Origin: Candidatus Micrarchaeota archaeon CG10_big_fil_rev_8_21_14_0_10_45_29
Lineage (GTDB): Archaea; Micrarchaeota; Micrarchaeia; Anstonellales; Anstonellaceae
DNA length: 64,000 nt
NCBI GenBank assembly: GCA_002778455.1
Contig: PFCD01000001.1
Coordinates: forward strand, 53,445 to 117,444
Reading direction: 5' to 3'
Shown piece by piece: positions 9,230-59,294 of this stretch. Numbering within the stretch: position 1 is the first letter of the stretch; each line of letters starts with the position of its first letter. The notes beneath the pieces were generated by a model. The model was not told the DNA's origin, searched no databases, and saw nothing but the letters and a program-made list of their open reading frames with translations. The translations under genes were made by a program, and so were the position numbers.

Positions 9230-10336
9230 TTGTTGATGCATATGAAAACAGCCGATATTCATGTAATAGGCGCCGGCCCTTCCGGAATTTTTTCATCCAT
9301 TACGGCGTTAAGGGAAGGAAAAGAGGTTATTTTGAGCGAAGAGCACACATCCGCAGGCGCCCCTGTGCACTGCTCAGGCCTTGTCTCTGCATCAGGGCTT
9401 GAGCAGCTAAAAGACGTTGTTGACTATAAAAAATGCACCCTAAACTCCATAACCAAGGCAAATATGCACGGCAAAGCAGAGAAATTCACCCTCTCATTTC
9501 CATTGCCAAAAGCATATGTAATAGACAGGGGAAAATTCGACTCTCTTGCAATGCAAAAATATGCTGATGAGGGCGGAAAATGCGTTTTTGGCGAGAAAAT
9601 AACCTCTTTTTCCCAATTAAAATCAACAAATATAATAGGCGCAGACGGCCCCATCTCCTCAATAGCCCGCCTCTTTAATTTTCCCCCCATCACCTCTTAT
9701 TGCGGCTGCTGGCAAGGCGAATTCAAATATTCCTGCCCTCAAAAAGACGCGGTAGAGGTGTATTTTAACCCCGAAATTTCCCCCGGCTTTATCGGCTGGG
9801 CAATTCCAATAGATGAGACACACGCAAAAATAGGCTTAGGGGTGGGAAAAAACGAAAACCTCTCACACGCAAAAAAATCCCTTCTCTCCAAGCTGGAAAT
9901 AAAAGATGCCCCAACCCACGAATTTGGCGCCCTTATTCCCCTCTCCCCACGAAAAAAATGCGCACTCTCCCCCATAGTTGCAGGAAAAAAATTCAATATC
10001 TCACTTTGCGGCGACGCCGCCGGGCAGGTAAAAGCCACCTCCGGAGGCGGCATATTCTTTGGCGCCATGTGCGGGCGCCTGGCAGCCATGCACGCGCAAA
10101 ACCCTGCTCTCTATGATAAAGAATGGAGAAAAAAATATGGCATGGATTTGCTTTTGCACCGCTTTTTGCGCCTCGGATTTGACTCCCTTAGCGCGGATGG
10201 CACTGATTTGGGAATAAAGGCGCTAAAACTGATGAAATTCGATTCCCTTCTCATGGAAGCGGGGCAAATGGATGAATATTCCAAAATGCTTTCCTTAAAT
10301 ACCTTAAATGCGTATATGCGTGTGCTCACAAGGTAA
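9230..10336 (+). CDS. FAD-dependent geranylgeranyl reductase family oxidoreductase
   Basis: The N-terminal 'IHVIGAGPSGIFSSITAL' is a GxGxxG Rossmann motif. A 'GDAAGQVKATSGGGI' motif is typical of GGR/digeranylgeranylglycerophospholipid reductases. Confidence 0.75.
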   Translation: MLMHMKTADIHVIGAGPSGIFSSITALREGKEVILSEEHTSAGAPVHCSGLVSASGLEQLKDVVDYKKCTLNSITKANMHGKAEKFTLSFPLPKAYVIDRGKFDSLAMQKYADEGGKCVFGEKITSFSQLKSTNIIGADGPISSIARLFNFPPITSYCGCWQGEFKYSCPQKDAVEVYFNPEISPGFIGWAIPIDETHAKIGLGVGKNENLSHAKKSLLSKLEIKDAPTHEFGALIPLSPRKKCALSPIVAGKKFNISLCGDAAGQVKATSGGGIFFGAMCGRLAAMHAQNPALYDKEWRKKYGMDLLLHRFLRLGFDSLSADGTDLGIKALKLMKFDSLLMEAGQMDEYSKMLSLNTLNAYMRVLTR

Positions 10337-10657
10337 TTTTTATGCGGGCAAATACTTCCAAAATGCTCTCATTAAATACCTTAAATGCGTATATGCGTGT
10401 GCTCACAAGGTAATTTTTATGGCACGAAAATTTGATTTGCACCGAAACCGCGGAGGGGGGCAAACCCCCCTGCTCAAAGCGCCTCGCGCTTTGGCATCCC
10501 AAATCGCAGTGGCGATTTGTAGGATCCCCAGTTTTGAGGTCCTACAAGACGCTCCGCGTCTTGGGATCCCAAAGTGCGTAGCACTTTGTAGGATTCTTTC
10601 CTGCCCCTCCCCCCGTTATACAAGGTAATTTTTATGGCAAGAAAATTTGATTTGCAC
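10280..10657 (+). repeat. Complex local duplication: a 77-bp tandem repeat (10280..10356 / 10357..10433) covering the GGR 3' end plus the PHP-gene start, a 37-bp direct repeat (10406..10442 / 10621..10657), and a 178-bp insert carrying three perfect hairpins
   Basis: Seen directly in the sequence. 'tccaaaatgct(t/c)tc(c/a)ttaaataccttaaatgcgtatatgcgtgtgctcacaaggtaatttttatg' occurs twice. 'caaggtaatttttatggca(c/a)gaaaatttgatttgcac' occurs twice. The hairpins are gggggg-caaa-cccccc, caaatcgc-agtg-gcgatttg and caaagtgc-gta-gcactttg. Confidence 0.8.
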
Positions 10658-11423: not shown

Positions 11424-14400
11424 ATGGGCGTTTTTGCGCAAGCACCCAACAGCCAGAGGGAAGACCATGCTTTTGAGGGCGAGCCGTTGGCAGAAGCTTC
11501 CCCTGCTTTGCGCAATTCTCCAATTTCGCGCACAGACCACACATATGTGAATTTAGAGATGGCATATGCGCGCGCGCAAGCAAAGCAAACCTCTATAGAG
11601 AATAAGCAGCAGGATTTCACAATGCTCTCGCGCCAGCTCTCCCTTTCGCGCTTTTCCCCAGAATCTTCATTTCCCGCGCAGGATGAGAAATCCATAATAG
11701 AGAAAATGAATTTGCTTGCCATCTCCTCAATTTCCAGCACAAATATTCCAGAATTTATTTCCCAATACGCGCAGCCCTTTATAAAAATAGCAAAAGATGC
11801 CGGATTAACCGACATCGCGCAAAAAATTGAAAATTATGCAAAAATTCTTGCAGAAACCACGCGCATAAATATCTCCTCCTCCCCGCGCCTTCAAAACCTT
11901 GGCAATTTGCTCTCTTTCAGGCCCGCCGACGTTTTTGAGGCAATAAAATATTGCACATTTCTCACTTCCGAGAAAAAAGTATCCCTTCTCTCCTCCCTCT
12001 CACAGTTCTCGCCAGAATATCTGCCCCCTTCCCAAAATTTTGCAACAGAGGAGGCGGCGCTAAAGCAAATAGAGCTTGCCTCAAATATCTCAACAGCGCG
12101 CACCTTTGCCCAGGATTACACAATCGCAAGCATAGGCGGCATAAAATCATTGCGCTTTCTTGGCACAGAAATCTGGTTTTCCCCGCAAGAAAAGAATTCC
12201 TTAATAGAGAAAATATGGGATGAAAATAAGCTTGCGCGCGAAGGAAAAGAATTGCAGGAGGAAAACATTCCTGAAAATATTGCCCAATGCTCGCTTGATT
12301 ATTGCAATTCCGCCCTCGCATATGCAAATTACATCTCTGTCACAACCTCAAGCAACGACATATTGGGCTTTGTATCCGACTTTGCAGTTGAGGCAAACGA
12401 TGCCATAAACAATATAGCCAAATTGCAGCTTGAGGGCGCGCCAAAGCTTGAAATAGTGGAAGAGCTGATAAAATTCGAAGAATTTTTCCAAAACTGCCAG
12501 TCCCTTGTGGCAGAGCAGGCGCACTATGAATCCCTTTACAAGCAGGCAGGCAACAACCCATTTCTCAACGCCCTTGTATGGGCAAACAGAAACGGGCACA
12601 CCGCCAACCTGTGGATGGCATTCGGGATGTCACTTTACAATCCTGTATTAGGGCAGGCGGCATTTGGGATGCTTGGTGCGCGCGACATAAAAGAGGGAAT
12701 AGAAACAAAGGATTTTAACCGAATAATATTCGGAACCGCAATGCTTGCAGGCATGTCCCAAAACCCGCTCATATCCGGCGCCTCGCACTCTTACATCCAG
12801 CTCTCAATAGGAAAAGACGCGCTTTACCTGGCAGATGACATAAACATAAACGGGGTAAATCCGCGCAACCTCCAATCTCTCCTTGACCTCTCAATCCTAT
12901 CTTTGGGGGTGCTCAACTCGCGCGCACAGGAAAAATATTCTCCCCATGATTTTCGCTATGGGGGGCCGCGAGCGCAATTCTCCGCCCCCGCGCAGCTGCC
13001 GTGGTTCACAGAGCTTTTTAACCTGGAATATTTTCGCAACAAAAATTTTGCTGCTTTGGCAGACGCAATAAAAAAGAACACCGAAATAAAATCCCCCCAA
13101 AACGACGAGGGAATAGTGCGCCACATTGCAATCCTCTCAAAATCCTTTAATGAACAGGAAATATCTCAAATTTGCTCGCGCATCTCACAAGATAAAAACA
13201 CCTCCTGCCTTATGGATGCGAACTTCCTTCTTTCCGTGGAGCTGAAAACTCAGGGCATGCACTGGGAAAACGCAGGGGGGGTAAATTATTTGCGCCCCGG
13301 CAAAGAGCCCGCCCCCCGCGAGCCGGTAGGCGGCACGGCATTTATCCCGAAAAAAAGCGGCGGCGAGCAAAAGCCCCGCATTGAGGAAAATTCTTCCCTA
13401 CTGCAAGATGAAACTATTGCAAAAAAGCTTGCAGATGCCGGGATAACAGAGAAGGCAATGCAAAGAATAGAATCGCTTGAAGGATACACTCCCGAAGCAA
13501 AAGAAATATTGCGGGAAATTATCTCAAAATCCCCTCAAGAAAGCCTAATGGTAAACTTTTATGCATTTGAATCCATCCTTGGGAAAGGCCCGCTTCCCGA
13601 AAATGTAATTTCTGCCCTAAAGACACAAATCTCAATCTGCCCTGCAGAAAATCTCCTAAACTTTCTTGTTATGGTTGAGAAGGCGCACCCTCTTCTCATA
13701 GATGAATACGGCTCAGAGCTTTCCTTCCCCATCATGGAGATGCTCCAAAACCCGAACCTATCCTCATATCCGCTCTGGAGGGATTTCCTCTTCTCCCTAA
13801 AACAGGGGGAATCATACCTCTCTCATGCCTCTGCTTTTCTTACGCTCAGTTCTATCCTAAAGAGCAGTTATTTCAAGCCCGAACACTGGAGTTTGCTTCA
13901 CAAACTGCACAATAAAACCGACATCAAGCAAAATGCAGATGTTCTCAAAGAGTTTTTCAAACTGCTTGAGGGGGGGCATCTCTCGCCAGAAAATATTCAA
14001 AATTTAAATTCTTTTCTGGATTTTATGCCCCGCATCAATAAGCTCTCTATGATAGAATTCAGGGAAAGGGCGGAAAGGAGCGGATATGACTTTGACAACT
14101 CCTTCCAATTGGCGCAAAGCTACAGGGAGCGTTTTTCTTTGGGAAAAGATGTGTGGGGGGACTGGGCATTAAACCTTCTATCTAATGTGGATGCCATCAA
14201 GCAGCTTGATGCTCTGAACCTGAAGGCAGCCGACTTTCTTTGCAAAAACCAGGGAATCCGCTTTTTTGGAAGGTATGATGCAGGCGTTCTTTTGAGGCAG
14301 TATGAAAATTACGGAAAACGCGATTCCTCAAAGCCGCTGATGCTTGCCATCAATGCCCTTTCGGATTACAGCGGAGCCATTTCCCTTGTCAGAAACAACA

Positions 14401-17400
14401 TAAGCTACCTTGACCAAAACCTTGACATTAAAATTTATGAGGCAAGCTCGCCTTTTTCAGCCGCAAGAAGCATTGTTGATACATACAACAACTACGGCCC
14501 TATATCTACTCTCTGGGTAGGCGGGCACGGAGATGTGGGAAGCATAAGGTTTGGGCACGCCTGGCCTGCCGGGCTCATAACCGCGCAGCAAATCGCAAGC
14601 GGATCAGATCTTGGGCGCTATTTCATCTCCCATCCCTCGGTTATTTTTGTGAGCTGCAGCACAGGCATTGATTTACCGGGAGGATTTGCAAATACAGCCA
14701 GTGGCAGGTATAATGGAATTTTCTATGCGCCACAGGGAGAAACCCTTCTTGACAACATAACCTACAAAGGGTTAGATGAAAATTCTACTCCCCTATTTGA
14801 CATAAGATGGTCAGTTTCTCCAGGATCAATATTTTCCGAAGGAAAGCCCTCTTCCCCAAAAACACAAAATCCAAACATCCAATTCCCTGTAGGCGGCACG
14901 GCATTTGTGCCCGCCCCGCCAAAAAGAATTTCCGCCCCGATAGATTTTGAGCGCACTTTAGCCCCAAAAAGCGCGGACGACATAAAATTTGAGCTTAATA
15001 CCCTTCTTTCCAATTTGCGCTCGCTTGAGCAAACGGCAAAAGATTTTTCAGATGATTTTAAAATGGGGCAATTAAACCAAAACATGCTCAATTCCCTTCA
15101 AAAGCAGCTAAAAGCCCTTGAGCAGGACGCAAAATTCGTACAAGAGCCGGCAGAATCCGCCCTTATCGCATCCAAAATAGCCAACGCAAAGCTGCTAATC
15201 GCAAATACGCAATACCATCTCTCACATGAGCCTGTCGGCGGAGTTGCAAAAAAGCCCCCCTCGGCAATTGAAATAGGTTTAGACGGAAAGCCTACTGGCA
15301 GAAATATAAATTTAGAAACTACTTATACTCCAGAATATTTTGAAGGAAGATTGGCAATAGACCAAACCACTCCATACATAGAGCTTGCAGAAGGAAAAGC
15401 GTTAGAAATATACAGGCGAAGCGACTTTAACGATTATTTTCTTTTGCAAAGAAAAGGAAATGAGCTTGAAATAAGCTGCATCTCGCAAAATTTCAGCCCA
15501 GAGCAATATATGGAAAACCTTGGCTACCAAAAAACATCGATATATGTATACAGGGCGCAAGAGCCGTCTGTACGACAAGTAATTGATGGCGCAACAACTC
15601 TAAAAAAAGGCGACAGAGTAGTATTTAGCTTCGGAGCCCCGGAAGGACAATCCCCCTCATTTATATTTGACGGCAAAAAGCTTGTAAATTCTGCAGAGCA
15701 GGGCTGGAAAGCAAGCCAGCCTGTCGGCGGAGTTGCACACAAGCAGAATGTGCAGCCAACAAAAATAATCCCTCTACAGGCAAAAATGGAAAATTTCTCA
15801 AACAGCCAGGAAAAGCTAAAACTTCACCTCCATGACTGGAAAAGCTCTGCATATAATGCATATAACTCCAGCAAGTTAATTCTTGATGACATATCCCGCC
15901 TAAAAAACTCCGGGGTAATGGATGCGCGCCTTGATTTGCTTGAGCAAAAATTCAAATCCCATTTGCAGGTGCTTGATGCCCCCTCAAACACCATAAAAAA
16001 CGAATTTGAGTCAAGAATGCGAGAGCCGACACAGGAGGGCACGCAGGAGCTTTTGGGCATAATGAAAAAAAACACCTCCCAAATCCTTGATTATATCAGC
16101 AACTCAACCCTTAAGGCAGACATAAAAGAGCTTGAGTTAATATTGCGCGACAATTCCAAAACAAGCGCAGAGGCAAAAACAATCCTTGAGGAAACCGTGC
16201 AAAAGAGCAAAAATACAAACCTCTCCGCAATTGATGAGATGGGCTCAACCCTTCCATCCTACCTTGAGCCAACATACGACGTTTCTCAAATATCTTTCGG
16301 AGGGGTAAGCCAACTCTCGCTTGAGAGCACGCAACTCTCCCCGCTTGTAGAGAAAGCAATAGCTTCCCAGAGTGCATCCTATCCCAAAATAAAAATAAGT
16401 GTGGAGGGGCTCTCCCCCGAAATTTATGCGATGGTTGATGCGCAGGCATTCTCCTCAATTGTGGGAAACATGCTTGCAAATTCCCTCAAATACACCGCAG
16501 AATATGCCTCCAAAAACCCGGGCGCATTTCCCGATGGGCAGGAAATAAAACTTTCCTTGCGGCAAAACGATTATGGAAGCGGCTTTCGCACCCTTGAGAT
16601 AACTGTTGAGGATTTTGCCTCCGGCATGACTTATGAGCAGGCGGCAAGCGCATTTGAGGGCAAGCCAAGCACAAACGCGGTCGGCTCCTCAACAGGGCTT
16701 GCGATGAGCACTTCGCAGAAGCTTGCGCAAATGATGGAAGGGGATTTGCGCATCGACTCGCGGGGGCGAGCTTCAGGGGAGCCCTCAACAAAATTCACTT
16801 TTGAGATTCCGCTCAAATCCCAAGAAGCCCTCAACATAGAATCTGACATGGGCATAAGCATTGAGCCGTCCCAAAAACCCGGAAAATTTGATATTTATAT
16901 CGGAGAAGGGCAATCAAAGGCGTATGCCGGCTCTTTTTCGCAAGAGCGCGCCGCCCTTTTCAAATCCCAGTTCCTCATATACCAGCAAAACTTTCCAGAT
17001 ATTCTTCTCCCGGAAATATCTCATAGCATACAAAGCATTGACGGGCTAATGTCTGCCTTTGGAAAATGGAGGGTAAAGCAGAGCAGCGGGGACATGGCGA
17101 ATTACCTCGAATACCTTAATTCCAATTCCCTGCACCACTCTTTTGAGCCGTATTTTGAGCAAATAAAATCAACTCTCAATTCCATGGGATACGAATACAC
17201 TAATGGGCAGATTCCTGTCCGCTACCAGGGAAGCGCCCCAGTCTTTATGTTTAGCACGGATGGAAAGCTTGGAAAGAAAGAGTTTGTCCTAAAAATAAAA
17301 GACGGGCTGGAGGAGGAGATTGCCTCTAAAGTTCTAAACCTTTTCGGGAGAAATACCCATGCCATTTACTCCCCTTCAAAAGATTTTTGCATAATGGAAA

Positions 17401-17972
17401 AGCTTGACATATCCACCCCTGAGGAGGTATTTCTCTCAGGAAGGCCAGCAGAACTGTCCGGCTTGCTCTCCGAAGGGGAGGAAAAATCAGAATACCTAAA
17501 GCAAAGGGGCTCATGGGCGGCAGATGAACTCTTCTTTGCCCTTGGCGACGGGCACACGAGAAATTACATGCTTCTGGATTCAAAAGGCACTCTTGCAAGG
17601 ATAGACTTTCAGGCATTCGGATATTCAAATCCCTCTCCCCTGCATTCCATGGAGCTTAATCACCTGTGGGGATATTTTCGTTCTGAGGGCTCTATACGCC
17701 CAGAGCTTAAAGGAGCCTTCATGGAACGTTGGACAGAGTTGCAGCTCATGCTCTCAGAACCTTCTGTCCGACAGGAGCTTCTCTCAATATATGAGGGATA
17801 TTTCTCAAATCCGAATTACAAGCAGCGCCTTCTGAGCATAGCACCCGAAAACGCCTACTCGCGGCCTTTTTATAATCTAACTCCAAAACAAATAGTGGAC
17901 AACCTCTCCAAAAACCTGCAGTTTGATGCAGAGATTGCATGGGAGAGATTTTCAGGTGAATATGCAAGATGA
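11424..17972 (+). CDS. Giant (2182 aa) multidomain protein with four PVGG(T/V)A motifs, a putative clan-CD (caspase/CHAT-like) His-Cys dyad, a GHKL/HATPase_c domain and a possible kinase-like C-terminus
   Basis: It is a single uninterrupted 6.5-kb ORF. The HATPase_c N-box is 'IVGNMLANSLKYT', the G1-like motif is 'EDFASGM' and the G2 motif is 'GSSTGLAMS'. 'WVGGHGDVGS...VIFVSCSTG' looks like a His/Cys protease dyad. The C-terminal 'LGDGHTRNYMLLDSKGTLARIDFQAFG' is reminiscent of kinase catalytic and DFG loops. No H-box was found. Confidence 0.65.
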   Translation: MGVFAQAPNSQREDHAFEGEPLAEASPALRNSPISRTDHTYVNLEMAYARAQAKQTSIENKQQDFTMLSRQLSLSRFSPESSFPAQDEKSIIEKMNLLAISSISSTNIPEFISQYAQPFIKIAKDAGLTDIAQKIENYAKILAETTRINISSSPRLQNLGNLLSFRPADVFEAIKYCTFLTSEKKVSLLSSLSQFSPEYLPPSQNFATEEAALKQIELASNISTARTFAQDYTIASIGGIKSLRFLGTEIWFSPQEKNSLIEKIWDENKLAREGKELQEENIPENIAQCSLDYCNSALAYANYISVTTSSNDILGFVSDFAVEANDAINNIAKLQLEGAPKLEIVEELIKFEEFFQNCQSLVAEQAHYESLYKQAGNNPFLNALVWANRNGHTANLWMAFGMSLYNPVLGQAAFGMLGARDIKEGIETKDFNRIIFGTAMLAGMSQNPLISGASHSYIQLSIGKDALYLADDININGVNPRNLQSLLDLSILSLGVLNSRAQEKYSPHDFRYGGPRAQFSAPAQLPWFTELFNLEYFRNKNFAALADAIKKNTEIKSPQNDEGIVRHIAILSKSFNEQEISQICSRISQDKNTSCLMDANFLLSVELKTQGMHWENAGGVNYLRPGKEPAPREPVGGTAFIPKKSGGEQKPRIEENSSLLQDETIAKKLADAGITEKAMQRIESLEGYTPEAKEILREIISKSPQESLMVNFYAFESILGKGPLPENVISALKTQISICPAENLLNFLVMVEKAHPLLIDEYGSELSFPIMEMLQNPNLSSYPLWRDFLFSLKQGESYLSHASAFLTLSSILKSSYFKPEHWSLLHKLHNKTDIKQNADVLKEFFKLLEGGHLSPENIQNLNSFLDFMPRINKLSMIEFRERAERSGYDFDNSFQLAQSYRERFSLGKDVWGDWALNLLSNVDAIKQLDALNLKAADFLCKNQGIRFFGRYDAGVLLRQYENYGKRDSSKPLMLAINALSDYSGAISLVRNNISYLDQNLDIKIYEASSPFSAARSIVDTYNNYGPISTLWVGGHGDVGSIRFGHAWPAGLITAQQIASGSDLGRYFISHPSVIFVSCSTGIDLPGGFANTASGRYNGIFYAPQGETLLDNITYKGLDENSTPLFDIRWSVSPGSIFSEGKPSSPKTQNPNIQFPVGGTAFVPAPPKRISAPIDFERTLAPKSADDIKFELNTLLSNLRSLEQTAKDFSDDFKMGQLNQNMLNSLQKQLKALEQDAKFVQEPAESALIASKIANAKLLIANTQYHLSHEPVGGVAKKPPSAIEIGLDGKPTGRNINLETTYTPEYFEGRLAIDQTTPYIELAEGKALEIYRRSDFNDYFLLQRKGNELEISCISQNFSPEQYMENLGYQKTSIYVYRAQEPSVRQVIDGATTLKKGDRVVFSFGAPEGQSPSFIFDGKKLVNSAEQGWKASQPVGGVAHKQNVQPTKIIPLQAKMENFSNSQEKLKLHLHDWKSSAYNAYNSSKLILDDISRLKNSGVMDARLDLLEQKFKSHLQVLDAPSNTIKNEFESRMREPTQEGTQELLGIMKKNTSQILDYISNSTLKADIKELELILRDNSKTSAEAKTILEETVQKSKNTNLSAIDEMGSTLPSYLEPTYDVSQISFGGVSQLSLESTQLSPLVEKAIASQSASYPKIKISVEGLSPEIYAMVDAQAFSSIVGNMLANSLKYTAEYASKNPGAFPDGQEIKLSLRQNDYGSGFRTLEITVEDFASGMTYEQAASAFEGKPSTNAVGSSTGLAMSTSQKLAQMMEGDLRIDSRGRASGEPSTKFTFEIPLKSQEALNIESDMGISIEPSQKPGKFDIYIGEGQSKAYAGSFSQERAALFKSQFLIYQQNFPDILLPEISHSIQSIDGLMSAFGKWRVKQSSGDMANYLEYLNSNSLHHSFEPYFEQIKSTLNSMGYEYTNGQIPVRYQGSAPVFMFSTDGKLGKKEFVLKIKDGLEEEIASKVLNLFGRNTHAIYSPSKDFCIMEKLDISTPEEVFLSGRPAELSGLLSEGEEKSEYLKQRGSWAADELFFALGDGHTRNYMLLDSKGTLARIDFQAFGYSNPSPLHSMELNHLWGYFRSEGSIRPELKGAFMERWTELQLMLSEPSVRQELLSIYEGYFSNPNYKQRLLSIAPENAYSRPFYNLTPKQIVDNLSKNLQFDAEIAWERFSGEYAR

Positions 17973-18673
17973 CAAGCAAACATCCAATACGAGCAATAAA
18001 TTCGGACCTTGTGCATACAATAGTTTCTCATATGCCTGCAATAACAAATTTGGGCAAAGCATTTGAAAAACTGGGGCCGCTGGAGCACAAGGTAAGCAAT
18101 CGGGGCTGGACCCAGCTGCGCACCGACTTTCTGCTTCATCAGGGGCCGTATCCATGGCAAGGGGAGCAAAAAGCCCAAGGCATAGAGGAGGCCGATCTTG
18201 CCTCCAGCATCAAAACACTGGCAAAATCCCTTGACATGAAAGAAATTATTATAGGAAAAACTCTTGCATATAATAATGAAAAAAATTCATTGCTTCTCTC
18301 CCCTGACGGGGCAGCCGCAGCCGCAATAATGCAATATTACATGGGAGAAGAAATCTCCCTTGCAAAGTCTCTCATAAAAAGCATAGTAAAAGGAAATACG
18401 GGATATCTCCTCCTACAAGAGCCAAGAAGGGCAGCCGCTGCGTATTTCTTTTTGCACATAGCCGCCAACGGAATAGACGGCGCCCTTTGTGATTTGCGGG
18501 TTTCTCAAGCATACTCTGCAGAGCTGCACTCAAAATCTCTTTACCTTCCAAAGAATTTCTATTTTGAGTTAAATCGCATCCACCTAAACTTTTTGGAATC
18601 CCTGCTGCGCGGGGACGGGGCAACCTTTTATGAATACCTAACCTCTACCTCAAGCCCCTCTTTCAAATCATAA
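17969..18673 (+). CDS. Hypothetical protein, translationally coupled (ATGA overlap) to the giant gene
   Basis: It is a 234-aa ORF with no recognisable domain. Its start overlaps the upstream stop by 4 nt. Confidence 0.4.
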   Translation: MTSKHPIRAINSDLVHTIVSHMPAITNLGKAFEKLGPLEHKVSNRGWTQLRTDFLLHQGPYPWQGEQKAQGIEEADLASSIKTLAKSLDMKEIIIGKTLAYNNEKNSLLLSPDGAAAAAIMQYYMGEEISLAKSLIKSIVKGNTGYLLLQEPRRAAAAYFFLHIAANGIDGALCDLRVSQAYSAELHSKSLYLPKNFYFELNRIHLNFLESLLRGDGATFYEYLTSTSSPSFKS

Positions 18674-23659: not shown

Positions 23660-24418
23660 ATGGACATAAACGACGCGTGGAAAGACACGTGCAAAATAGT
23701 CCTTGGCGGAGAAATAGGCGATTTGCAAAAATATGAAAAATATCTTCAAACCTATGTCGAGCCAATATATGAGAAAAACTCCTCCCTAAGCCAAAAGAAA
23801 GTAATAATCTCACGTCCGGACTTTTGCAAAAATGCAAAATTCATCTCATTTGACGAGCAGGAAAAATACAACAAGCAAATTTCGGATATAAAACTAAACT
23901 TAAACCAGATAAAAGACATAGATTCAATTCTCTCCTCAATAAGCGAGCAATTTTATTATGCAGGCAACCAGATAACCGGCAACTGCTCAAACATAGAAAA
24001 TTCGGACAATGTGATGGATTCGCATTATGTAATAAATTCAATAGAAATCGCGGGGGGAAAATTTATCGCCTACTCCTCAATGGCGCGCTTTGACGAATAT
24101 TTATTCGGAGTAAACTGGTCGGGGCAGGCAAAATACTGCATAAAATGCTTTGAAACATACAAGCAAAGCCGCTGCTTTGAGACTTTGAGCGTCTGGACAT
24201 CCTCCGACTGCTATTATTCTGCCCGCCTTGAGGGATGCGGCGACTGCATATTCTCATTTAACCAAAAGCACAAAAACAACCTTATAGGCAACCTGCAATT
24301 TCCAAAAGAAGAATATGCAAAACGCAAAAAAGCGCTTCTTGATCAGATAAGAAGCACTCTTGAGAGCAAGAAAAGAATACGCTCAATACTTGAGATAATG
24401 GGGGGTGTCAATGGGTGA
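23660..24418 (+). CDS. Cys-rich paralogue, A-module only (252 aa), unit 1 of the array; unknown family
   Basis: The N-terminus is 'WKDTCKIVLGGEIGDL..YEKYL', followed by 'KSSLSQK', 'IKDIDSI' and 'FYYAGNQITGNCSNIENSD'. Then come Cys ladders ('SSDCYYSARLEGCGDCIFSFN') and an 'IGNLQFPKEEY' tail. It is homologous to the other seven genes. Confidence 0.7.
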   Translation: MDINDAWKDTCKIVLGGEIGDLQKYEKYLQTYVEPIYEKNSSLSQKKVIISRPDFCKNAKFISFDEQEKYNKQISDIKLNLNQIKDIDSILSSISEQFYYAGNQITGNCSNIENSDNVMDSHYVINSIEIAGGKFIAYSSMARFDEYLFGVNWSGQAKYCIKCFETYKQSRCFETLSVWTSSDCYYSARLEGCGDCIFSFNQKHKNNLIGNLQFPKEEYAKRKKALLDQIRSTLESKKRIRSILEIMGGVNG

Positions 24419-25175
24419 GCAAATAGAGGGCGCATTCTCCTCGGTCACTTCAATTCTTTTCGGCAAAGCCCTCCAAAAAATTGACGACTACGGGGATTGG
24501 CTTTTGAAAAATCGAAGAAAGATAAGAACCGTAAAATCCACAATAAGCGGCAAAGAGGAGCTGATACCTCCGCTGGAGTTTCACCACGCAATCGACAGGG
24601 TATATGTTACAAACGAAGAGGCATTCAAACTCGGGGAAACAAAAGCAAAAAAAGAGGACATAGAAAAAACCACCATCCAAAACGCGGACAAAACACTCAA
24701 AAACATCCTTTATTACTCTCCCGACGTGCAAATGGGAAAAAATCAGGAAATGGAATTTTGCGCCCACTACATTGACTGCCAATTTTGCTACAAATCCGTC
24801 TCCATGGGGCATGTAAAATATGCTGCTTACTCTTTTTGGCCCCGCGACTCGGAATACATGTTTGGAGTGGACACCGTATTCTCCTCAAAATTCTGCATAA
24901 AATGCTACAATTCGGTAAATTTAACCCGCTGTTTTGAAACCTCCCACTCCTCCCATTGCTCTGACTGCTATTTCTGCCACAACTGCGACGGCTGTTCCGA
25001 GTGCATGTTTTGCACAAACGCAAAAAGCCTTCGCTATGCAATATTCAACAAACAATATCCAAAAGAGGAATACTTAAAACTCAAAAAGAAAATACAGGAA
25101 GAAATCTTCGCAAAATTGGAAAAAGATAAAAAATTAGACTTAAACATATTCAATTTAGGGTGCTATAAAAAATGA
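24405..25175 (+). CDS. Cys-rich paralogue, B-module only (256 aa), partner of 23660..24418
   Basis: 'FGKALQKIDDYGDWLL', 'YSFWPRDSEYMFG' and 'HCSDCYFCHNCDGCSECMFC' (7 Cys spaced CxxC) are present. The tail is 'YPKEEYLKLKKKIQEEIFAKLEKDKKLDLNIFNLGC'. It overlaps the upstream gene by 14 nt. Confidence 0.7.
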   Translation: MSMGEQIEGAFSSVTSILFGKALQKIDDYGDWLLKNRRKIRTVKSTISGKEELIPPLEFHHAIDRVYVTNEEAFKLGETKAKKEDIEKTTIQNADKTLKNILYYSPDVQMGKNQEMEFCAHYIDCQFCYKSVSMGHVKYAAYSFWPRDSEYMFGVDTVFSSKFCIKCYNSVNLTRCFETSHSSHCSDCYFCHNCDGCSECMFCTNAKSLRYAIFNKQYPKEEYLKLKKKIQEEIFAKLEKDKKLDLNIFNLGCYKK

Positions 25176-26767
25176 AATACTCGCAAGCCTACGAAGGGCT
25201 CAGCAAGGAATGGAAAAACACCTGCCGAATCCTGCTAAAAGAAGAGATAGGGGAGCTTAGCGACTTCAGTGGCTATCTCCAAAAATATATAGAGCCAGTA
25301 AGGGCGCAGAAATCATCGTTAAGCCAAAAGAGCATTACTCTCTCCAATGACGCCGCCTGTCCCCCAAAGAGAGTCATCGGAATGGAAGAGCTTGGCGTTT
25401 ATGCCAAAAAAACAGAAAAAATAAAGCTGGATATTAACCAAATCAAAGACATAGACTCCATTATCTCTTCTTTAGAGGAGAAATTTTATTATTGCGGAAA
25501 CGTCGTGCTCGGAAACTCAAGCAACGTGGAGAATTCCCACAGATGCACAAACACCAATTACGCACTAGCATCCCACGAAGTCGCGGATTGCCAGTATATC
25601 TCAAATTCAACAATGGCGAGATATTGCGAGTACATATTCGGTTCAAGCATTATGGGTGAGACAAAATACCTCATAAACGTCCTCTATTCTACAAAATCCG
25701 TGCGCTGCATGGAATGCACCCACCCCCTCCGTTCTTCCGACTGCTATTTCGGGGCAAACCTTGAGGACTGCTCCGACTGCATGTTCAGTTTCAATCTCAA
25801 GAATAAGAACAATTCCATCGGCAATCTGCCTCTTGAGAAAAGTAAATATATGCAAATAAAACAGAAGCTCTTATCCGAAATCGCCCGGAAGCTAAAAAAG
25901 GAGAAAAACATGCGTGGAATAATCGAGCTTATTGCCGGAATTCCAAGCCCTTCAACGCCAAAAGAGCGCCCCGAATACGTTTTCAAAACACAACACCCGC
26001 CTTCCAAGGAGGTGGAGGAGGCATTTCAAGCCACAACCAAGGTGCTTTTGGGAAAGCCCCTTTCAAATCTCCAGACATATGAGAAATATTTGCTTGCAAA
26101 CACGAAAAAACCCATCTCAGCCAAATCAGCCATAAGTTCAAAGCCCCTGCACGCAATCCCCATGCTCTTTAACCGGGAGCTGAAAAACTCCTTTGTAAGC
26201 CGGGATGAAGCTGCAGAGCTGTCCTCAAGGCGCATAAGCCCGCAATCCGCCGATGAACTAAGCCTTGAAAACATGGATAAAATCCTTCATGAGATCAAAT
26301 ACACTTGCCCTCAGGTAATTCTTGGAGAAAATGAGGATGTTGAAGAAAGCGTGGTTTACAACACATCAAGGCACTGCTACGGGGGCTCGGTGTATTATTT
26401 TGCAAAATATTGCGCCTATTGTTTCTGGCCGCGCAATTCCGAATACATCTTTGGTTCCACCTCCGTATTCTCATCAAAATTCTGCCTCGCTTGCCACTAT
26501 TCAAGCTCCCTTACCCGATGTTTTGAGCTTAGCGACTGCAACAACTGCTCCGACTGCTATTTCTGCCACAACGTGGAAAATTGCACAGAATGCATGTTCT
26601 GCTTCAATACAAAAGCCAAAAGATACGCAATCGGGAACGTGGAATATCCAAAGGAGGTATACTTAAAACTCAAAAAGAAAATACAGGAAGAAATCTTCGC
26701 AAAATTGGAAAAAGATAAAAAATTAGACTTAAACATATTCAATTTAGGGTGCAAAAAAAATGGATAA
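25172..26767 (+). CDS. Cys-rich paralogue, fused A+B form (531 aa)
   Basis: The N-half matches 23660 ('WKNTCRILLKEEIGEL', 'IKDIDSI', 'FYYCGN'). The C-half matches 24405, and its last 31 aa are encoded by 93 bp identical to 25071..25163. There is an ATGA overlap with the upstream gene. Confidence 0.75.
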   Translation: MKYSQAYEGLSKEWKNTCRILLKEEIGELSDFSGYLQKYIEPVRAQKSSLSQKSITLSNDAACPPKRVIGMEELGVYAKKTEKIKLDINQIKDIDSIISSLEEKFYYCGNVVLGNSSNVENSHRCTNTNYALASHEVADCQYISNSTMARYCEYIFGSSIMGETKYLINVLYSTKSVRCMECTHPLRSSDCYFGANLEDCSDCMFSFNLKNKNNSIGNLPLEKSKYMQIKQKLLSEIARKLKKEKNMRGIIELIAGIPSPSTPKERPEYVFKTQHPPSKEVEEAFQATTKVLLGKPLSNLQTYEKYLLANTKKPISAKSAISSKPLHAIPMLFNRELKNSFVSRDEAAELSSRRISPQSADELSLENMDKILHEIKYTCPQVILGENEDVEESVVYNTSRHCYGGSVYYFAKYCAYCFWPRNSEYIFGSTSVFSSKFCLACHYSSSLTRCFELSDCNNCSDCYFCHNVENCTECMFCFNTKAKRYAIGNVEYPKEVYLKLKKKIQEEIFAKLEKDKKLDLNIFNLGCKKNG

Positions 26768-27518
26768 CCTAAATGGCGTATTCAAGCAAACCTGCAAAAC
26801 AATCTTCGGCAAGGAGATAGGCGATTTGAAAAACTATGAATCCTACTTCAAGGAGGCAGTTCCCGGCATGGAGGTAAAATCCGCCTTCTCAGGGGAAACC
26901 GCCTTCGCGGCGGCAGACGACTACGCAAAGGGCTCAAAATTCTACAACTACCAAAAGGAAATAGATAAAATCTCAACCCTAAACAAGCCCTTTAACATAA
27001 ATGAAATAAAAGACATAGACTCCCTCATAAACGCCACCCGCGAGCGCTACGTCTATTCCTCAAACAAGATTTTGGGGAAATTTGAGAATGTGTCTGCATC
27101 GGATGTAATAATTGACTCCATAAACATTGTCGGAAGCGCAAACCTCTCAAAATGCAAAAACGCAGCCTTTTGCTTTCTGGCAAGAGAATCTCAAAACGTA
27201 TTTGGGTGCGCTTCATTCGGCTTTGATACAAATGTGATTCGCAGCTGCTACCACAAAAACAACGCACGAACTTTTGAGTGCGCGGTTGAGGAATACTTAA
27301 GCGACTCCCTTTTTTGCTACAATGTGTTCAATTCGTCCGATTGCATATTCTGTTTCAACCTAAAAAACAAGAAAAACATGGTAGCGAATATACAGCTTAC
27401 AAAAGAGCAATACTCGTCCAAAAAGGCGGACTTAATTGAGCAAATCACCTCTGAATTGGAGTCAAAGGGCAGGCTTGACTTTAGCATAATGGGTTTGAGC
27501 GGGCGTTTGCATGGATGA
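26760..27518 (+). CDS. Cys-rich paralogue, divergent A-module (252 aa)
   Basis: 'FKQTCKTIFGKEIGDLKNYESY', 'INEIKDIDSLI' and 'SSDCIFCFNLKNKKN' are present. It overlaps the upstream gene by 8 nt. Confidence 0.65.
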   Translation: MDNLNGVFKQTCKTIFGKEIGDLKNYESYFKEAVPGMEVKSAFSGETAFAAADDYAKGSKFYNYQKEIDKISTLNKPFNINEIKDIDSLINATRERYVYSSNKILGKFENVSASDVIIDSINIVGSANLSKCKNAAFCFLARESQNVFGCASFGFDTNVIRSCYHKNNARTFECAVEEYLSDSLFCYNVFNSSDCIFCFNLKNKKNMVANIQLTKEQYSSKKADLIEQITSELESKGRLDFSIMGLSGRLHG

Positions 27519-28284
27519 ATTTGAGAAATCATTTGCACAAACGACAAAAATTCTTCTTGGGGCAGAGCTTGGCTCTTTTTATGATTATTCAAAGTGGCTT
27601 TCTGAGCATGTGTTTTTACCTTATTGCGCAAAATCAAAAAAATCGGGAAAAGAAGTGTGGCTTGCACCCTCGCGGGACTTTCTTGGAAAAAAGTTTGACG
27701 CCGCCCGCATTGTCTCAATGGAGGAGGGGGAAATAAACAAAGAGAACTCCTACTCTTACGAGGACATAAAAGATGCGGATTTGAACTCATTTAGAACTAA
27801 ATTCTGCGAGCCAATAGCCCTGTATCTTGGGAACTTTCGCTACAAAACACATCAAAATGCTCTCAAATCTTCGGGAACAGGAGATTGTGTGAATGTGTAT
27901 ATGGGGGAAGATGTTTATCACGGTGCGCGCAACATCGGCTTTTGCAAAAGCATGCTATACTGCGAAAACATATTCGGATGCCGCGAGGGCACAAACTGCA
28001 AATACTGCATAAACTGCTACGGCTCAACCTACCTCACCAGATGCTTTGAGATGGATTCATGCACAAAATGCTCTGACTCATACTTCTGCCACAACTGCGA
28101 AAATTTGGAAAACTGCCTCTTCTGCTTCAACTCAAAAGGATTGCACTACGCAATAGCAAACATAGAAGTGGGAAAAGAAAAATACATGGAAATAAAAAAG
28201 AAAATCCTCACAGAAATTTCCCAAAAGCTTGAAAAAAACAAAAAACTTGACATAAGCATATTCAACATAGGTGCAAGAAAATGA
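27511..28284 (+). CDS. Cys-rich paralogue, B-module (257 aa)
   Basis: The core is 'TNCKYCINCYGSTYLTRCFEMDSCTKCSDSYFCHNCENLENCLFCFNSKGLHYAIANIEVGKEKY', and the tail is '..KLEKNKKLDISIFNIG'. It overlaps the upstream gene by 8 nt. Confidence 0.7.
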   Translation: MDEFEKSFAQTTKILLGAELGSFYDYSKWLSEHVFLPYCAKSKKSGKEVWLAPSRDFLGKKFDAARIVSMEEGEINKENSYSYEDIKDADLNSFRTKFCEPIALYLGNFRYKTHQNALKSSGTGDCVNVYMGEDVYHGARNIGFCKSMLYCENIFGCREGTNCKYCINCYGSTYLTRCFEMDSCTKCSDSYFCHNCENLENCLFCFNSKGLHYAIANIEVGKEKYMEIKKKILTEISQKLEKNKKLDISIFNIGARK

Positions 28285-29846
28285 GCCAAATAGCAGACGA
28301 GATAAACAAATCCTGGCACGAGACATTCAGGATTCTCTTTGGAACCGATTGCAAGCACAACCTTGAAGAACTCTCTGAATGGCTCTTTCGCGACCATTAT
28401 CCGCCCATGTACGTAAAATCCTCAATTTCCGGCAAACCAGTTACCCTCTGCTCCACAAGATACTCGAAAACTTCAAAATTCATCTCGCAGGAGGAAATAA
28501 GCTATTCCAGAAAGCACCGGCTAGACATAAACAAAATCAAGGATATTGACTCAATTCTTGAGGCAATAGAAGATCGCGCATATTATGCCGGAAACAAAAT
28601 ATTCGGCTCCACAACCAACAGCGAGTCCTGCGACAACATAACCGATTGCCACTATGCATACCATAGCTCTGTATGCTCCCAGTCAAAGCAGCTGGGCTAC
28701 TCTTCATACGCGCGCGACAACAGCGAATACTCCTTCGGCTCTGAAATACACAGCAAAGGCAAATACCTAATCCGGGTTTTGGGGGCCGCCGGCCTGGCCC
28801 GCTGTTTCGAGTCATACATAATAACCAATTCCTCTGACCTTTTCTATACTTTCGACTGCTCTGGCTGCGACAACGCAATGTTTTCCTTCGGCCTGCGCTC
28901 CAAACGATATTGCATAGGCAACCTGCCCCTCGAAAAATCCAAATACCTGCCCCTGAAGAAAAAACTCACCCAAGAAGCGGCAGAATACATAAACAAGCAC
29001 AAAACCTTCCCATCAGTATATGATTTTCCACCCCCAGACAAGTCCAAAATAAAGCCGCTTTCCATAACGCCTACTCTTGCCCCAAAAATGGATTTCAAGC
29101 CCATTGACGAGGCTTTTGAAACCGCCACCAAAGTAATCCTTGGAAAGCCCCTCTCCCCTGTAAAAAATTACCGGAAATTCCTCACAAAGCGCTCGGATGC
29201 CGTGCAGATAATAAAAACTATATTCGGAAGCGAGGGCCTCTACTCCAAGTACTCATGGTATCGCGCCGTCCCCCACGAGCGCGCAATAACCATGGCAGAG
29301 GCGCGCGAGATGGAAAGCCGCCACATAACTTTGAGCGAATCCGAAAATCTGGGCTCAATACTTAAAAAATGCGAAGCCATCGCCTTTTACGCAGTGGATT
29401 TCAAGGAGGGGCAGAACACAAACAACTCATACACCCAGGTGGAATTCAATGCCATAAACTCATACATGTGCGGGGATGTTACCTACTCAAAAAACGCGGC
29501 ATTTGACACAATGGCCTTCCACAGCGAGGCGGTGTTCGGCTGCTTTAGGGCAATACACTCCAAATATTCAATCCGCTGCCATGACTGCTTCCAATTAACC
29601 GCCTGCATGGACATGGACTCATGCTCCTACTGCTCAAATTCAATGTTTTGCCACAACTGCGAAAACCTTGAGAACTGCATGTTCTGCTTCAATGCAAAAA
29701 GCCTCAAATACGCCATAGGCAACGTGGAAGTAGGGAAAGAAAAATACGCCGAGATAAAAAAGAAAATCTGCGATGAAATATTAGCCCAAATAGAAAAAAA
29801 CGGGGATTTGGGCTTTGACATATGCGATTTAGGGTGCAAAAAATGA
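28281..29846 (+). CDS. Cys-rich paralogue, fused A+B form (521 aa)
   Basis: There is an ATGA overlap with the upstream gene. The A-half has 'WHETFRILFGTDC', 'INKIKDIDSI' and 'YYAGNKIFGSTTNSESCDN'. The B-half has 'FETATKVILGKPL' and 'CSNSMFCHNCENLENCMFCFNAKSLKYAIGNVEVGKEKY'. Confidence 0.75.
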   Translation: MSQIADEINKSWHETFRILFGTDCKHNLEELSEWLFRDHYPPMYVKSSISGKPVTLCSTRYSKTSKFISQEEISYSRKHRLDINKIKDIDSILEAIEDRAYYAGNKIFGSTTNSESCDNITDCHYAYHSSVCSQSKQLGYSSYARDNSEYSFGSEIHSKGKYLIRVLGAAGLARCFESYIITNSSDLFYTFDCSGCDNAMFSFGLRSKRYCIGNLPLEKSKYLPLKKKLTQEAAEYINKHKTFPSVYDFPPPDKSKIKPLSITPTLAPKMDFKPIDEAFETATKVILGKPLSPVKNYRKFLTKRSDAVQIIKTIFGSEGLYSKYSWYRAVPHERAITMAEAREMESRHITLSESENLGSILKKCEAIAFYAVDFKEGQNTNNSYTQVEFNAINSYMCGDVTYSKNAAFDTMAFHSEAVFGCFRAIHSKYSIRCHDCFQLTACMDMDSCSYCSNSMFCHNCENLENCMFCFNAKSLKYAIGNVEVGKEKYAEIKKKICDEILAQIEKNGDLGFDICDLGCKK

Positions 29847-31426: not shown

Positions 31427-32148
31427 AAAAAAAGAAACAGCCCCAAGAAATTCAAAAAACCGACTCAAAGCTCAAAGCCGCAACCATTGGCTTCTACCAC
31501 CAAAACTGCCAGACAAGCATAAGCACCGAAAAATTCCCCCACATCACTTTGGAGCAGGTAAGCCCGGTGGTATATTTCAGAAGGGAAAAGGACTGGATGG
31601 ACTACAGCCTCATATGGAACGTAAAGGCCGAAAAAGAGTCCGAATTAGAAGAATACTTAAATTATATAAAAAAGCGAAACGACACAAAGCGCCTCTCCAT
31701 ACTGAACAAATCAGGCACAGAAGCCCTCATCCTCCTGCGCTTCAAATCCCCCTCCTCAAGCTATGAAAAAGTCCTTGAGAGCGGCACAATCCCCACCTCC
31801 CCTGTAATAGCAAAAGAGGGCTTTGAGACATATAATTTGCTTGCAATAAATCCGAAGGGAATCAAAAACCTCTCAAAAGAGCTTGACGCCATAGGGGACG
31901 TGAAAATGATGCGCGTGGGCGAATACAAAAATTCCGGCGACTTGCCATCCCTTACCCACAAGCAAAAAGACGCGCTCATAATGGCGATGATAAACGGCTA
32001 TTACAAATGGCCGAAAAGCACAAATCTTGAAAAGCTCTCAGAGCTTGCAAACATATCCAGAAGAAGCATGCAGGAGAGGCTGCGCCGCGCCGAATCCAAG
32101 CTTTTTCCCCATTTAATCAAAAAACACGTAAAAAAGGGCGAAAAATAG
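31423..32148 (+). CDS. HTH_10 (bacterio-opsin-activator/Bat-type) helix-turn-helix transcriptional regulator embedded in the Cys-rich gene array
   Basis: The C-terminal 'LTHKQKDALIMAMINGYYKWPKSTNLEKLSELANISRRSMQERLRRAESKLF' matches HTH_10 strongly. The probable ATG at 31423 overlaps the upstream stop (ATGA). The ORF track start at 31414 would require a GTG start. Confidence 0.7.
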   Translation: MKKKKQPQEIQKTDSKLKAATIGFYHQNCQTSISTEKFPHITLEQVSPVVYFRREKDWMDYSLIWNVKAEKESELEEYLNYIKKRNDTKRLSILNKSGTEALILLRFKSPSSSYEKVLESGTIPTSPVIAKEGFETYNLLAINPKGIKNLSKELDAIGDVKMMRVGEYKNSGDLPSLTHKQKDALIMAMINGYYKWPKSTNLEKLSELANISRRSMQERLRRAESKLFPHLIKKHVKKGEK

Positions 32149-32160
32149 GGCATATGCCCT

Positions 32161-33783: not shown

Positions 33784-33792
33784 GAAAAAAAA

Positions 33793-58958: not shown

Positions 58959-59294
58959 ATGAGCAAGAAACTTTTCGTAGGAAACCTTCCTTACAGTATG
59001 ACTAAGGAAGAGATGGTAGCATTGTTTGCCGACTATGGTCAAATAGACGACGCAGTGCTTATCATGGACAGAATGAGCGGCCGCTCAAAGGGCTTTGGCT
59101 TTGTAACCGTTGCAGATGATGCAATGGCAGACAAGGCAATCGCAGAGCTAAACGGCAGAGAAATGGAGAACAACATGCAGTTAAAGGTTGACGTTGCCAA
59201 GCCCATGGGCGAGAGGCCACCGCGCAGAGGCGGCTTTGGAGGCGGCGGAGGCCGAAGAGAAGGCGGATTTAGCAGGCGCGACGACGACTATTAA
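58959..59294 (+). CDS. RRM-type glycine-rich RNA-binding protein
   Basis: RNP2 is 'KLFVGNL' and RNP1 is 'KGFGFVTV'. The C-terminal tail 'RRGGFGGGGGRREGGFSRRDDDY' is RGG/Gly-rich. Confidence 0.8.
   Translation: MSKKLFVGNLPYSMTKEEMVALFADYGQIDDAVLIMDRMSGRSKGFGFVTVADDAMADKAIAELNGREMENNMQLKVDVAKPMGERPPRRGGFGGGGGRREGGFSRRDDDY

Follow-up and report, generated by a model that had tools for sequence, protein, structure and literature searches.

A putative palindromic insertion with a long target-site duplication at the GGR-PHP gene junction of a Micrarchaeota archaeon

The 64,000-nt stretch of chromosomal DNA analysed here (the window) comes from an uncultured Micrarchaeota archaeon, and at positions 10279-10657 it holds three copies of a gene junction together with a 177-bp insert. 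The junction joins the stop codon of a geranylgeranyl-reductase-like (GGR) gene to the start codon of a PHP-domain phosphoesterase gene. Homologues of GGR, all from Micrarchaeota/Micrarchaeia, carry the names digeranylgeranylglycerophospholipid reductase or NAD(P)/FAD-dependent oxidoreductase (Micrarchaeota), and the public gene call for GGR (P0001, 364 aa) probably starts near 9242. The features of the locus are as follows.

9230..10336, + strand: GGR gene, encoding a flavoprotein (open reading frame [ORF]; weak Pfam matches to GGR_cat and FAD_oxidored)
10334-10336, + strand: GGR stop codon, TAA
10279..10344, + strand: copy 1 of a 66-nt repeat, with the functional last 18 GGR codons, TAA, TTTTT, and ATG (repeat search and Tandem Repeats Finder, TRF)
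10342..10413, + strand: upstream open reading frame 1 (uORF1), 23 codons (MRANTSKMLSLNTLNAYMRVLTR*), from the first junction ATG to the second TAA (translation)
10345..10355, + strand: 11-nt linker CGGGCAAATAC separating the tandem copies (direct reading of the sequence)
10356..10421, + strand: copy 2 of the 66-nt repeat, a non-functional GGR end plus junction, common to the sister lineage L027 (repeat search and comparison with L027)
10405..10442, + strand: left copy of the 38-bp target-site duplication, with the Shine-Dalgarno (SD)-like AAGGTAA, TTTTT, and the decoy start ATG GCA CGA AAA TTT GAT TTG CAC
10419..10628, + strand: uORF2, 69 codons, from the decoy ATG across the whole insert, ending at the duplicated TAA, which lies 5 nt short of the real PHP ATG (translation)
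10443..10619, no strand assigned: 177-bp insert, a foldback dimer (sequence, repeat search, folds, and alignment to contig L023)
10620..10657, + strand: right copy of the 38-bp target-site duplication, with a decoy GGR end (ACAAGGTAA), the real SD, ATG, and the first 8 PHP codons
10634..11323, + strand: PHP gene, 229 aa (Pfam PHP and PHP_C; the exact protein is present on public contig L001)

The 66-nt direct repeat (10279-10344 and 10356-10421) has two differences between its copies, and TRF reports it with a period of 77, 1.9 copies, and 95% matches over 10275-10421. The 38-nt direct repeat (10405-10442 and 10620-10657) differs once (CGA versus AGA). The 17-mer ACAAGGTAATTTTTATG, composed of the last GGR codons, TAA, TTTTT, and the PHP ATG, occurs three times, in keeping with an earlier note on this DNA that had seen the GGR end, "tttttatg," and the first PHP codons in two or three copies. 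The 77-bp tandem repeat of that note is the 66-nt repeat with its two differences and its period of 77; its 37-bp direct repeat is present but is 38 nt long with one difference, and its 178-bp non-coding segment between the repeats measures 177 bp (10443-10619). Because the 11-nt linker CGGGCAAATAC resembles GCGGGGCAAAT at 10259-10269, we consider that the original tandem duplication probably spanned about 86 bp and later suffered a small deletion.

The insert and the junction repeats are real and do not reflect an error of assembly, which the earlier note had considered conceivable. The structure is identical in L001 (ENA ERZ27293414, a MEGAHIT contig from another sample, with 4 SNPs over 4.9 kb) and in two JGI contigs, L025 and L026, up to their ends inside H4, the fourth CAA-type hairpin of the insert. 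Among these three contigs only L001 spans the whole insert, and MEGAHIT at k=141 assembles straight across it. As far as each extends, four assemblies agree on the structure; they derive from at least three samples and from different assemblers.

Several irregularities of the public contigs were seen along the way. The two JGI contigs end at the same base (L025:6228 and L026:2535, about window position 10584); the foldback breaks short-read assembly at that point. A 92-aa ORF has been publicly called across the insert (L025:5952-6227), the public PHP call at L027:2213-2737 carries a 33-codon N-terminal extension that reads through copy 2, and L001:1-64 is Illumina adapter/index sequence (caagcagaagacggcatacgagat...agatct), i.e., adapter contamination of a public contig.

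Comparison with two relatives points to two events at the junction. L027, a sister lineage from the same metagenome (GGR 84% identical in amino acids and 85% in nucleotides), shares the tandem duplication of 77 bp, including its unusual linker of 11 nt (C[G/A]GGCAAATAC), and there the 38-mer is single and uninterrupted (...ACAAGGTAATTTTTATGGCAAGAAAATTTGATTTGCAC|ATGCATTC, where ATGCATTC is PHP body), so that L027 presents the empty site. The more distant L028 (GGR 61% amino acid identity) shows one junction only, with a spacer of 17 nt, and lacks both the duplication and the insert. Because L027 has the duplication without the insert and L028 has neither, the tandem duplication of about 77 bp is the older event, independent of the insertion; by parsimony, the ancestor shared by the window and L027 already had it, and the insertion followed later, in the window lineage only. 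The insertion is also younger than the lineage split, since the 38-bp repeats differ at 1 of 38 positions, compared with 15% between the lineages. The comparison with the empty site demonstrates an insertion with a 38-bp target duplication, at a point 24 nt inside the PHP ORF of the GGR-PHP operon. The earlier note had rightly proposed that the insertion duplicated its target, as the 38-mer stands on both sides of the insert and is uninterrupted in L027. It had also counted the 77-bp repeat as part of that duplication, which does not hold, given that this repeat is common to L027, absent from L028, and older.

The same comparison accounts for the differences among the copies. CTC TCA and AGA are ancestral, being present in L027 and in the non-functional GGR-end copy of the window; the functional GGR copy of the window gained two synonymous changes and the decoy PHP start gained one (AGA>CGA). 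We therefore regard the former as ordinary synonymous substitutions in a functional gene and the latter as a chance change in a decoy. As all three inter-copy differences are synonymous, import of the decoy copies from a foreign allele was considered, an idea that L027 makes unnecessary. The template and variable repeats of a diversity-generating retroelement were likewise rejected as a model, as the tandem copies differ at only two positions, the changes are not adenine-specific, and there is no reverse transcriptase.

We also observed that window positions 10141-10440, the duplicated junction region, are 90-98% identical to L027, against 85% overall, and that the tandem copies are 92-97% alike despite a duplication older than the lineage split. 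Constraint, gene conversion, or a recombination tract are possible causes of this high identity.

Within the insert, the following features, none of which has an assigned strand, can be distinguished.

10454..10471: G-rich hairpin AGGGGGG-CAAA-CCCCCCT
10475..10493: hairpin H1, CAAAGCGC-CTC-GCGCTTTG
10500..10519: hairpin H2, CAAATCGC-AGTG-GCGATTTG, followed by TAGGATCC
10545..10563: hairpin H3, CAAGACGC-TCC-GCGTCTTG, preceded by TCCTA
10570..10588: hairpin H4, CAAAGTGC-GTA-GCACTTTG, followed by TAGGATTC
10600..10615: C-rich tail CCTGCCCCTCCCCCCG, complementary to the G-rich head and closing the whole-element foldback (predicted folds)

The three perfect hairpins of the earlier note (10454-10471, 10500-10519, and 10570-10588) are all real, but there are five in total, H1 and H3 being the additional ones. 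The further palindrome that it reported, gacgctccgcgtc, exists only as the core of H3, and its GGATCC palindromes lie at 10522-10527 and 10564-10569. The first unit of the element (10443-10540) reads CGAAACC, G-rich hairpin, H1, GCATCC, H2, and TAGGATCC...TTTTGAGG; the second (10541-10619), which is inverted, partial, and diverged, reads TCCTA, H3, GGATCC, H4, TAGGAT, and the C-rich tail. The dimer unit is thus about 95 nt, with a G-rich hairpin and two CAAAnnGC/GCnnTTTG hairpins joined by GGATCC, then TAGGA. Read directly from the sequence, the termini of the insert match each other only imperfectly, over about 16 nt around GGAGGGG. The arms of the foldback are only 79% complementary, yet every small hairpin is perfect. 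Because the repeats flanking the insert are 97% identical, the dimer must be older than its insertion here, and a donor copy must have been present elsewhere.

Four of the eight distinct perfect hairpins found across the window (stem of at least 8 bp, loop of 3-6) are inside the insert, which also forms the most stable 120-nt fold of the 64 kb (-72 kcal/mol, versus -52 for the next best). The folding that the earlier note had recommended gave z-scores of -7.3 (+ strand) and -9.2 (- strand), with 0 of 200 shuffles equally stable. The insert is non-coding, its sole open frame being the read-through uORF2, which is without protein-family or homologue support. A six-frame translation of the insert, used as a protein query for spurious ORFs over other copies, gave no matches at E values up to 10. 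When uORF2 was compared with 1.8 billion representative proteins there was one match, P0121, rejected as an unrelated low-complexity 55-aa tandem-repeat protein with no hairpins in its DNA. Rfam gave 0 matches at gathering thresholds, and a permissive search gave only chance-level miRNA matches (E >= 0.7), which lends no support to the small structured RNA suggested in the earlier note. Excision from RNA in the manner of a bulge-helix-bulge intron was also rejected, as there is no bulge-helix-bulge geometry and the direct repeats cannot pair.

The duplicated 38-mer consists of more than a gene end, as it holds the SD-like AAGGTAA, a 5-nt spacer, ATG, and 7 further PHP codons. AAGGTAA is taken as the local SD-like signal because, of 45 starts in the window, about 12 have AGGT(G/A) 5-10 nt upstream. 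Since the duplicated 38 bp include both SD and ATG, the complete translation-initiation region of PHP was rebuilt 3' of the insert and a decoy start was left 5' of it; the decoy, MARKFDLH, exists upstream of the real PHP start, as the earlier note had said. PHP would have lost its start had the 38 bp not been duplicated. The frame of uORF2 is the one of six that is open through the insert, and uORF1 is also open, in phase, in L027. As confirmed by translation, TAA-N5-ATG occurs at each step of the chain GGR -> uORF1 -> uORF2 -> PHP. Along such a chain translational coupling would be preserved, with PHP probably still expressed by termination-reinitiation, and ribosomes on uORF2 would melt the hairpins.

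Related elements were sought with strict exact-pattern scans of 185,579 species-representative genomes and of JGI metagenome contigs. The earlier note had proposed looking for additional copies in the whole genome; the partial search that was made, over the 64-kb window and about 60 kb of related Micrarchaeota DNA, revealed none, but the pattern scans yielded relatives on L023 and on L004/L037. Following exact protein matches past the ends of the window extended it by only 1.3 kb. On L023 (JGI Ga0210057_1001464), positions 1305-1412 align collinearly to window 10443-10540 and are about 78% identical, the homology starting at the left end of the insert. This copy lies in a 250-nt spacer directly upstream of the start of a membrane-protein gene and is followed by a T-run. 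L023 is inferred to derive from the same genome or a very closely related one, because the correlation of its tetranucleotide profile with that of the window (0.984; GC 44.6%) equals that between the two halves of the window (0.985). The copies seen with matching composition are one locus in the 64-kb window and one related unit on L023.

The second relative, on L004/L037 (contig JBDRNY010000028, from the same metagenome-assembled genome [MAG] as L028), has the module CCCTA-CAAATTGC...GCAATTTG-GGGTCC-CAAATCGC...GCGATTTG-TAGGATCG inside a 101-nt foldback between rpl3 and rpl4. Flanking this insert is a 26/28-nt direct repeat, CTTTCATAAATATC[A/G]TC[--/CA]TTATTTCTT, which corresponds to the spacer plus the rpl4 start. 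The rpl3-rpl4 gap is 150 nt, compared with about 10 nt at all other junctions of the operon and 7 nt in the relative L038 (rpl4 66% identical); this comparison is one of gap length only and not of sequence, the closest rpl4 relatives being just 66% identical. The pattern matches once in the L004 MAG.

An element with probably the same double-hairpin architecture lies outside the Micrarchaeota, in a spacer between divergent genes of a Methanofastidiosia MAG (L003:5119-5173, JBHIDS010000110.1). It consists of a hairpin with a 10-bp stem, CTGTCC, CAAAAAGC-TCT-GCTTTTTG, and TAGGAT, with a weak 14-nt direct repeat (5094 and 5293) around it. The nine hairpins, from four loci, comprise six different stems that covary at stem positions 4-6, and Watson-Crick pairing holds for 72 of 72 stem pairs. 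A search for the G-rich motif (GGGGGAGGGG) was uninformative, its matches falling mostly in coding sequence.

L023 carries in addition, at 14520-14700 and running off the end of the locus, an array of tandem units, each 81-84 nt long, CGCCGAGGGGGAGA-[variable perfect hairpin]-TTTTGCGC..GCGCAAAA-CCCCTGAAGGCGCGAGAGAAGAGAG. It was rejected as a family member because it has no sequence similarity to the insert, and it represents another family of hairpin repeats, unrelated to the first, in a genome that matches the window in composition.

We conclude, with somewhat better than even confidence, that the 177-bp segment is a non-coding palindromic element inserted in this lineage only, belonging to a small Micrarchaeota family of double-hairpin elements akin to MITEs (miniature inverted-repeat transposable elements), REPs (repetitive extragenic palindromes), and REPINs, and that its long target duplication restores the PHP start. 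The L004/L037 family member provides a second case of insert plus duplication (26/28 bp) at another operon junction. The most likely route is that the insertion process itself makes long duplications, by widely staggered breaks followed by fill-in synthesis.

A number of observations weigh against this conclusion. Pfam scans of about 41 of the 45 ORFs in the window revealed no transposase, integrase, Cas1, or HUH domain. The terminal inverted repeats do not match perfectly and are not the same in the window as in L004, and a duplication of 26-38 bp is atypical for transposases. The scans of genomes and JGI metagenomes yielded only 2-3 related loci, so that, unless the patterns missed most copies, the element is not a high-copy repeat. 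A relaxed double-hairpin scan of the 64-kb window and of other Micrarchaeota loci totalling about 60 kb found no second copy, viral contigs scanned with two patterns gave chance matches only, and the L023 copy is without a flanking duplication. The open frame and phase of uORF2 could be due to chance (probability of about 0.17 x 1/3). In L004 the ORF initiated at the decoy ATG ends inside the module, and a different ATG opens a frame through the insert into rpl4; because the decoy ORF stops there, the argument from translational coupling is not general.

A bolder proposal, which we regard as speculative and rather doubtful, is that Micrarchaeota (DPANN) hold an undescribed class of foldback double-hairpin elements whose machinery cuts the target 26-38 bp apart. 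Insertions at closely spaced operon junctions would then be "self-healing," regenerating stop, SD, and start and leaving a read-through uORF, and would be catalysed by a new integrase or transposase with a long ruler, which might be Cas1/casposase-like or IS1634-like.

The main rival to an insertion of a mobile element, unlikely but the strongest of the alternatives, is template switching resembling fork stalling and template switching (FoSTeS) or microhomology-mediated break-induced replication (MMBIR), in which a strand stalled at the AT-rich junction, copied a hairpin locus of the L023 type, and re-annealed 38 nt upstream, so that insert and duplication arose in one step. Strong hairpins stall replication forks, and the same junction underwent an older, plain tandem duplication of about 77-86 bp without an insert, which argues that the site is duplication-prone. 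The scanned ORFs include no transposase gene, the copy number is apparently low, and the duplication lengths in the two cases are unequal (38 versus 26/28 bp), all of which accord with such a process. However, the combination of double-hairpin foldback and junction duplication recurs independently at two loci in two genomes and so points to a property of the element, there is no clear microhomology at the insert junctions, and the nearest known copy (L023), being only about 78% identical, is not the donor. As a rule, templated insertions by template switching happen once, show microhomology at their joints, and have a donor of nearly the same sequence. The locus resembles them in combining a copied insert with a flanking duplication at a structure-prone, AT-rich site that also has a plain tandem duplication, and it differs in that two genomes show the same element type and the same outcome, with no donor found.

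It is improbable, although less easily set aside than the alternatives that follow, that selection has kept the insert chiefly as a functional structured RNA or as a cis-regulatory element, whether an intercistronic mRNA stabiliser or processing site like REP or the bacterial interspersed mosaic element (BIME), or an antisense sRNA. The very strong structure predicted on both strands, the perfect stems with compensatory variation, and the position of the L023 copy, which lies immediately upstream of a gene start and is followed by a T-run, are what such an element would present. Nevertheless, no Rfam family matches, the locations are not syntenic, and perfect palindromes are equally expected of elements acting at the DNA level. 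The exclusively Watson-Crick pairing (72/72), with no G-U in the 8-bp stems, means that there is no strand signal, and a function of this kind is compatible with an origin by insertion rather than an alternative to it.

A remnant of a site-specific integrative element, with the 38-bp repeats as attL/attR and the hairpins left after internal deletion, is very improbable. Archaeal integrated elements at gene ends are typically bordered by direct repeats of tens of base pairs, and other parts of the window encode a HerA/FtsK-like ATPase and hold a reiterated, unannotated block of genes. Against this, the 38-bp repeat is a plain local target, occurring once in the L027 empty site, the L004 insert is flanked by a duplication of a completely different target, and the insert is homologous to the stand-alone L023 unit and not to an integrase-bearing element. 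Least credible of all is that strain variants or palindromic reads were concatenated in series by assemblers: two JGI contigs do break inside the insert and L001 does start with adapter sequence, but the identical structure in the four assemblies, the MEGAHIT contig running straight across the insert, and the clean subset of the structure in the sister lineage L027 leave this with almost no probability.

The earlier note had called the element MITE-like, which the related hairpin modules at other Micrarchaeota loci favour and the long duplication and missing transposase do not. Like a MITE, the insert is small (177 bp, under about 500 bp) and non-coding, with a foldback, G-rich/C-rich inverted termini that match imperfectly, a target duplication, an empty site in L027, and related copies at unrelated loci. 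Unlike MITEs, whose duplications are typically 2-10 bp, it has one of 38 bp (26/28 bp in L004), not fixed in length; its termini are poorly conserved, its copy number is apparently low, and no parent insertion sequence (IS) or transposase is encoded in the scanned ORFs.

The GTAG-tagged REP/REPIN/BIME elements provide a structural parallel. A GTAG REP is a stem-loop of 20-40 nt with a 5-13-bp stem, a short loop, and a terminal GTAG outside the pairing (PMC3733652), and the insert family resembles REPs and REPINs in its 8-bp perfect stems with loops of 3-5 nt (PMC3733652, PMC3116915). The likeness extends to subfamilies arising by complementary stem changes, heterodimers of different stems, extragenic or intercistronic sites, and modules of the form hairpin-GGATCC-hairpin, set as head-to-head inverted pairs with tags outward. 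G-TAG/CTA-C (TTTG|TAGG or CCTA|CAAA) stands immediately outside seven of the nine family hairpins. In the Micrarchaeota family, however, the G/C of the tag is the last stem pair, whereas the GTAG tag of REPs is defined as unpaired (PMC3733652). REPs have been reported only in bacterial phyla, usually in 20 to thousands of copies and associated with RAYT (PMC3733652); here the host is a DPANN archaeon, copies are rare (one per 64 kb), and the Pfam scans of the window found no RAYT. REP clusters are able to reiterate flanking DNA (PMC3733652, PMC3116915). Insertion of REPIN or IS200/IS605 elements makes no target duplication, unlike that in the window with its 38 bp.

Long duplications are known from two other systems. 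IS1634/IS1549 elements, members of a family diverse in archaea, generate long, variable target direct repeats of 8-514 bp, for which there is no accepted mechanism (PMC2266710), and the duplications around the window and L004 inserts are likewise long and variable. Those elements, however, are autonomous DDE elements of 1.5-2 kb with the terminal consensus C-----YT, which the ends of the insert, CGAAACCG... and ...CGTTAT (CGAAACCG and ATAACGGG), do not fit (PMC2266710). No IS1634-type transposase was found in the scanned ORFs of the window. Cas1-family integrases carry out two widely spaced strand transfers and duplicate 14-15 bp (casposons) or a whole CRISPR repeat of about 24-37 bp, and casposons are often located at gene 3' ends. 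Integration through widely spaced strand transfers with a long duplication would be shared with these systems, but there is no Cas1 or casposase among the scanned ORFs, the insert is neither spacer-like nor casposon-like, and the sequence duplicated here is an arbitrary target rather than a dedicated repeat.

The surroundings of the junction are those of a cellular chromosome, with housekeeping genes nearby (ribosomal proteins, topoisomerase VI, a class I aminoacyl-tRNA synthetase, and UPP synthase), and the gene order PrsW - TPR-AAA - GGR - PHP - UPP synthase is kept in relatives. In the window, PHP and UPP synthase are separated (11424-18673) by a 2182-aa ORF (sole Pfam match HATPase_c, aa 1672-1798) and a second ORF of 234 aa, and in L028 and the ERZ1426844 contig PHP directly adjoins UPP synthase; these approximately 7 kb thus look like a lineage-specific insertion. 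The ERZ1426844 contig (GGR 60% identical) has a TnpB gene (OrfB_IS605/Cas12f-like), a nucleotidyltransferase, and an ORF without assigned function between TPR-AAA and GGR, and the TnpB gene suggests that IS200/IS605-type elements are active near the GGR-PHP cluster in this clade. Farther along the window, at 23660-35538, a reiterated ORF block occurs about three times, with three ORFs of about 250 aa (252/256/531 aa) that had no Pfam matches when scanned, accompanied by an HTH_10 protein (31414-32148) and a HerA/FtsK/TrwB-like ATPase (33793-35538). This block may be an integrated element or a surface-structure locus. A small protein with an RNA recognition motif (RRM_1, Pfam E = 3.9e-21), a domain uncommon in archaea, is encoded at 58959-59198.

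The element is best described as a palindromic MITE/REP-like repeat in a DPANN archaeon, and it stands out by its long target duplication, which regenerates a translation start. DPANN genomes are tiny and gene-dense, and therefore nearly any insertion strikes a gene or an operon junction. The GGR-PHP locus documents an insertion into the first codons of a gene, complete with its empty site, that the gene appears to have survived because 38 bp with SD and start were duplicated. The foldback structure breaks short-read assemblies and misleads gene callers, as seen in the JGI ORFs across the junction and the insert, and in the relative L004 the open frame across the insert, if called from the upstream ATG, would lengthen rpl4 by 47 codons. 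If our interpretation is correct, GTAG-tagged REP-like hairpin dimers would be added to the archaea, where they are so far unreported. The long-duplication pattern was found in both of the two insertions with definable targets and, if it proves general, would imply an insertion mechanism with an unusually long stagger, to our knowledge so far described only for IS1634/IS1549 and Cas1-type integrases.

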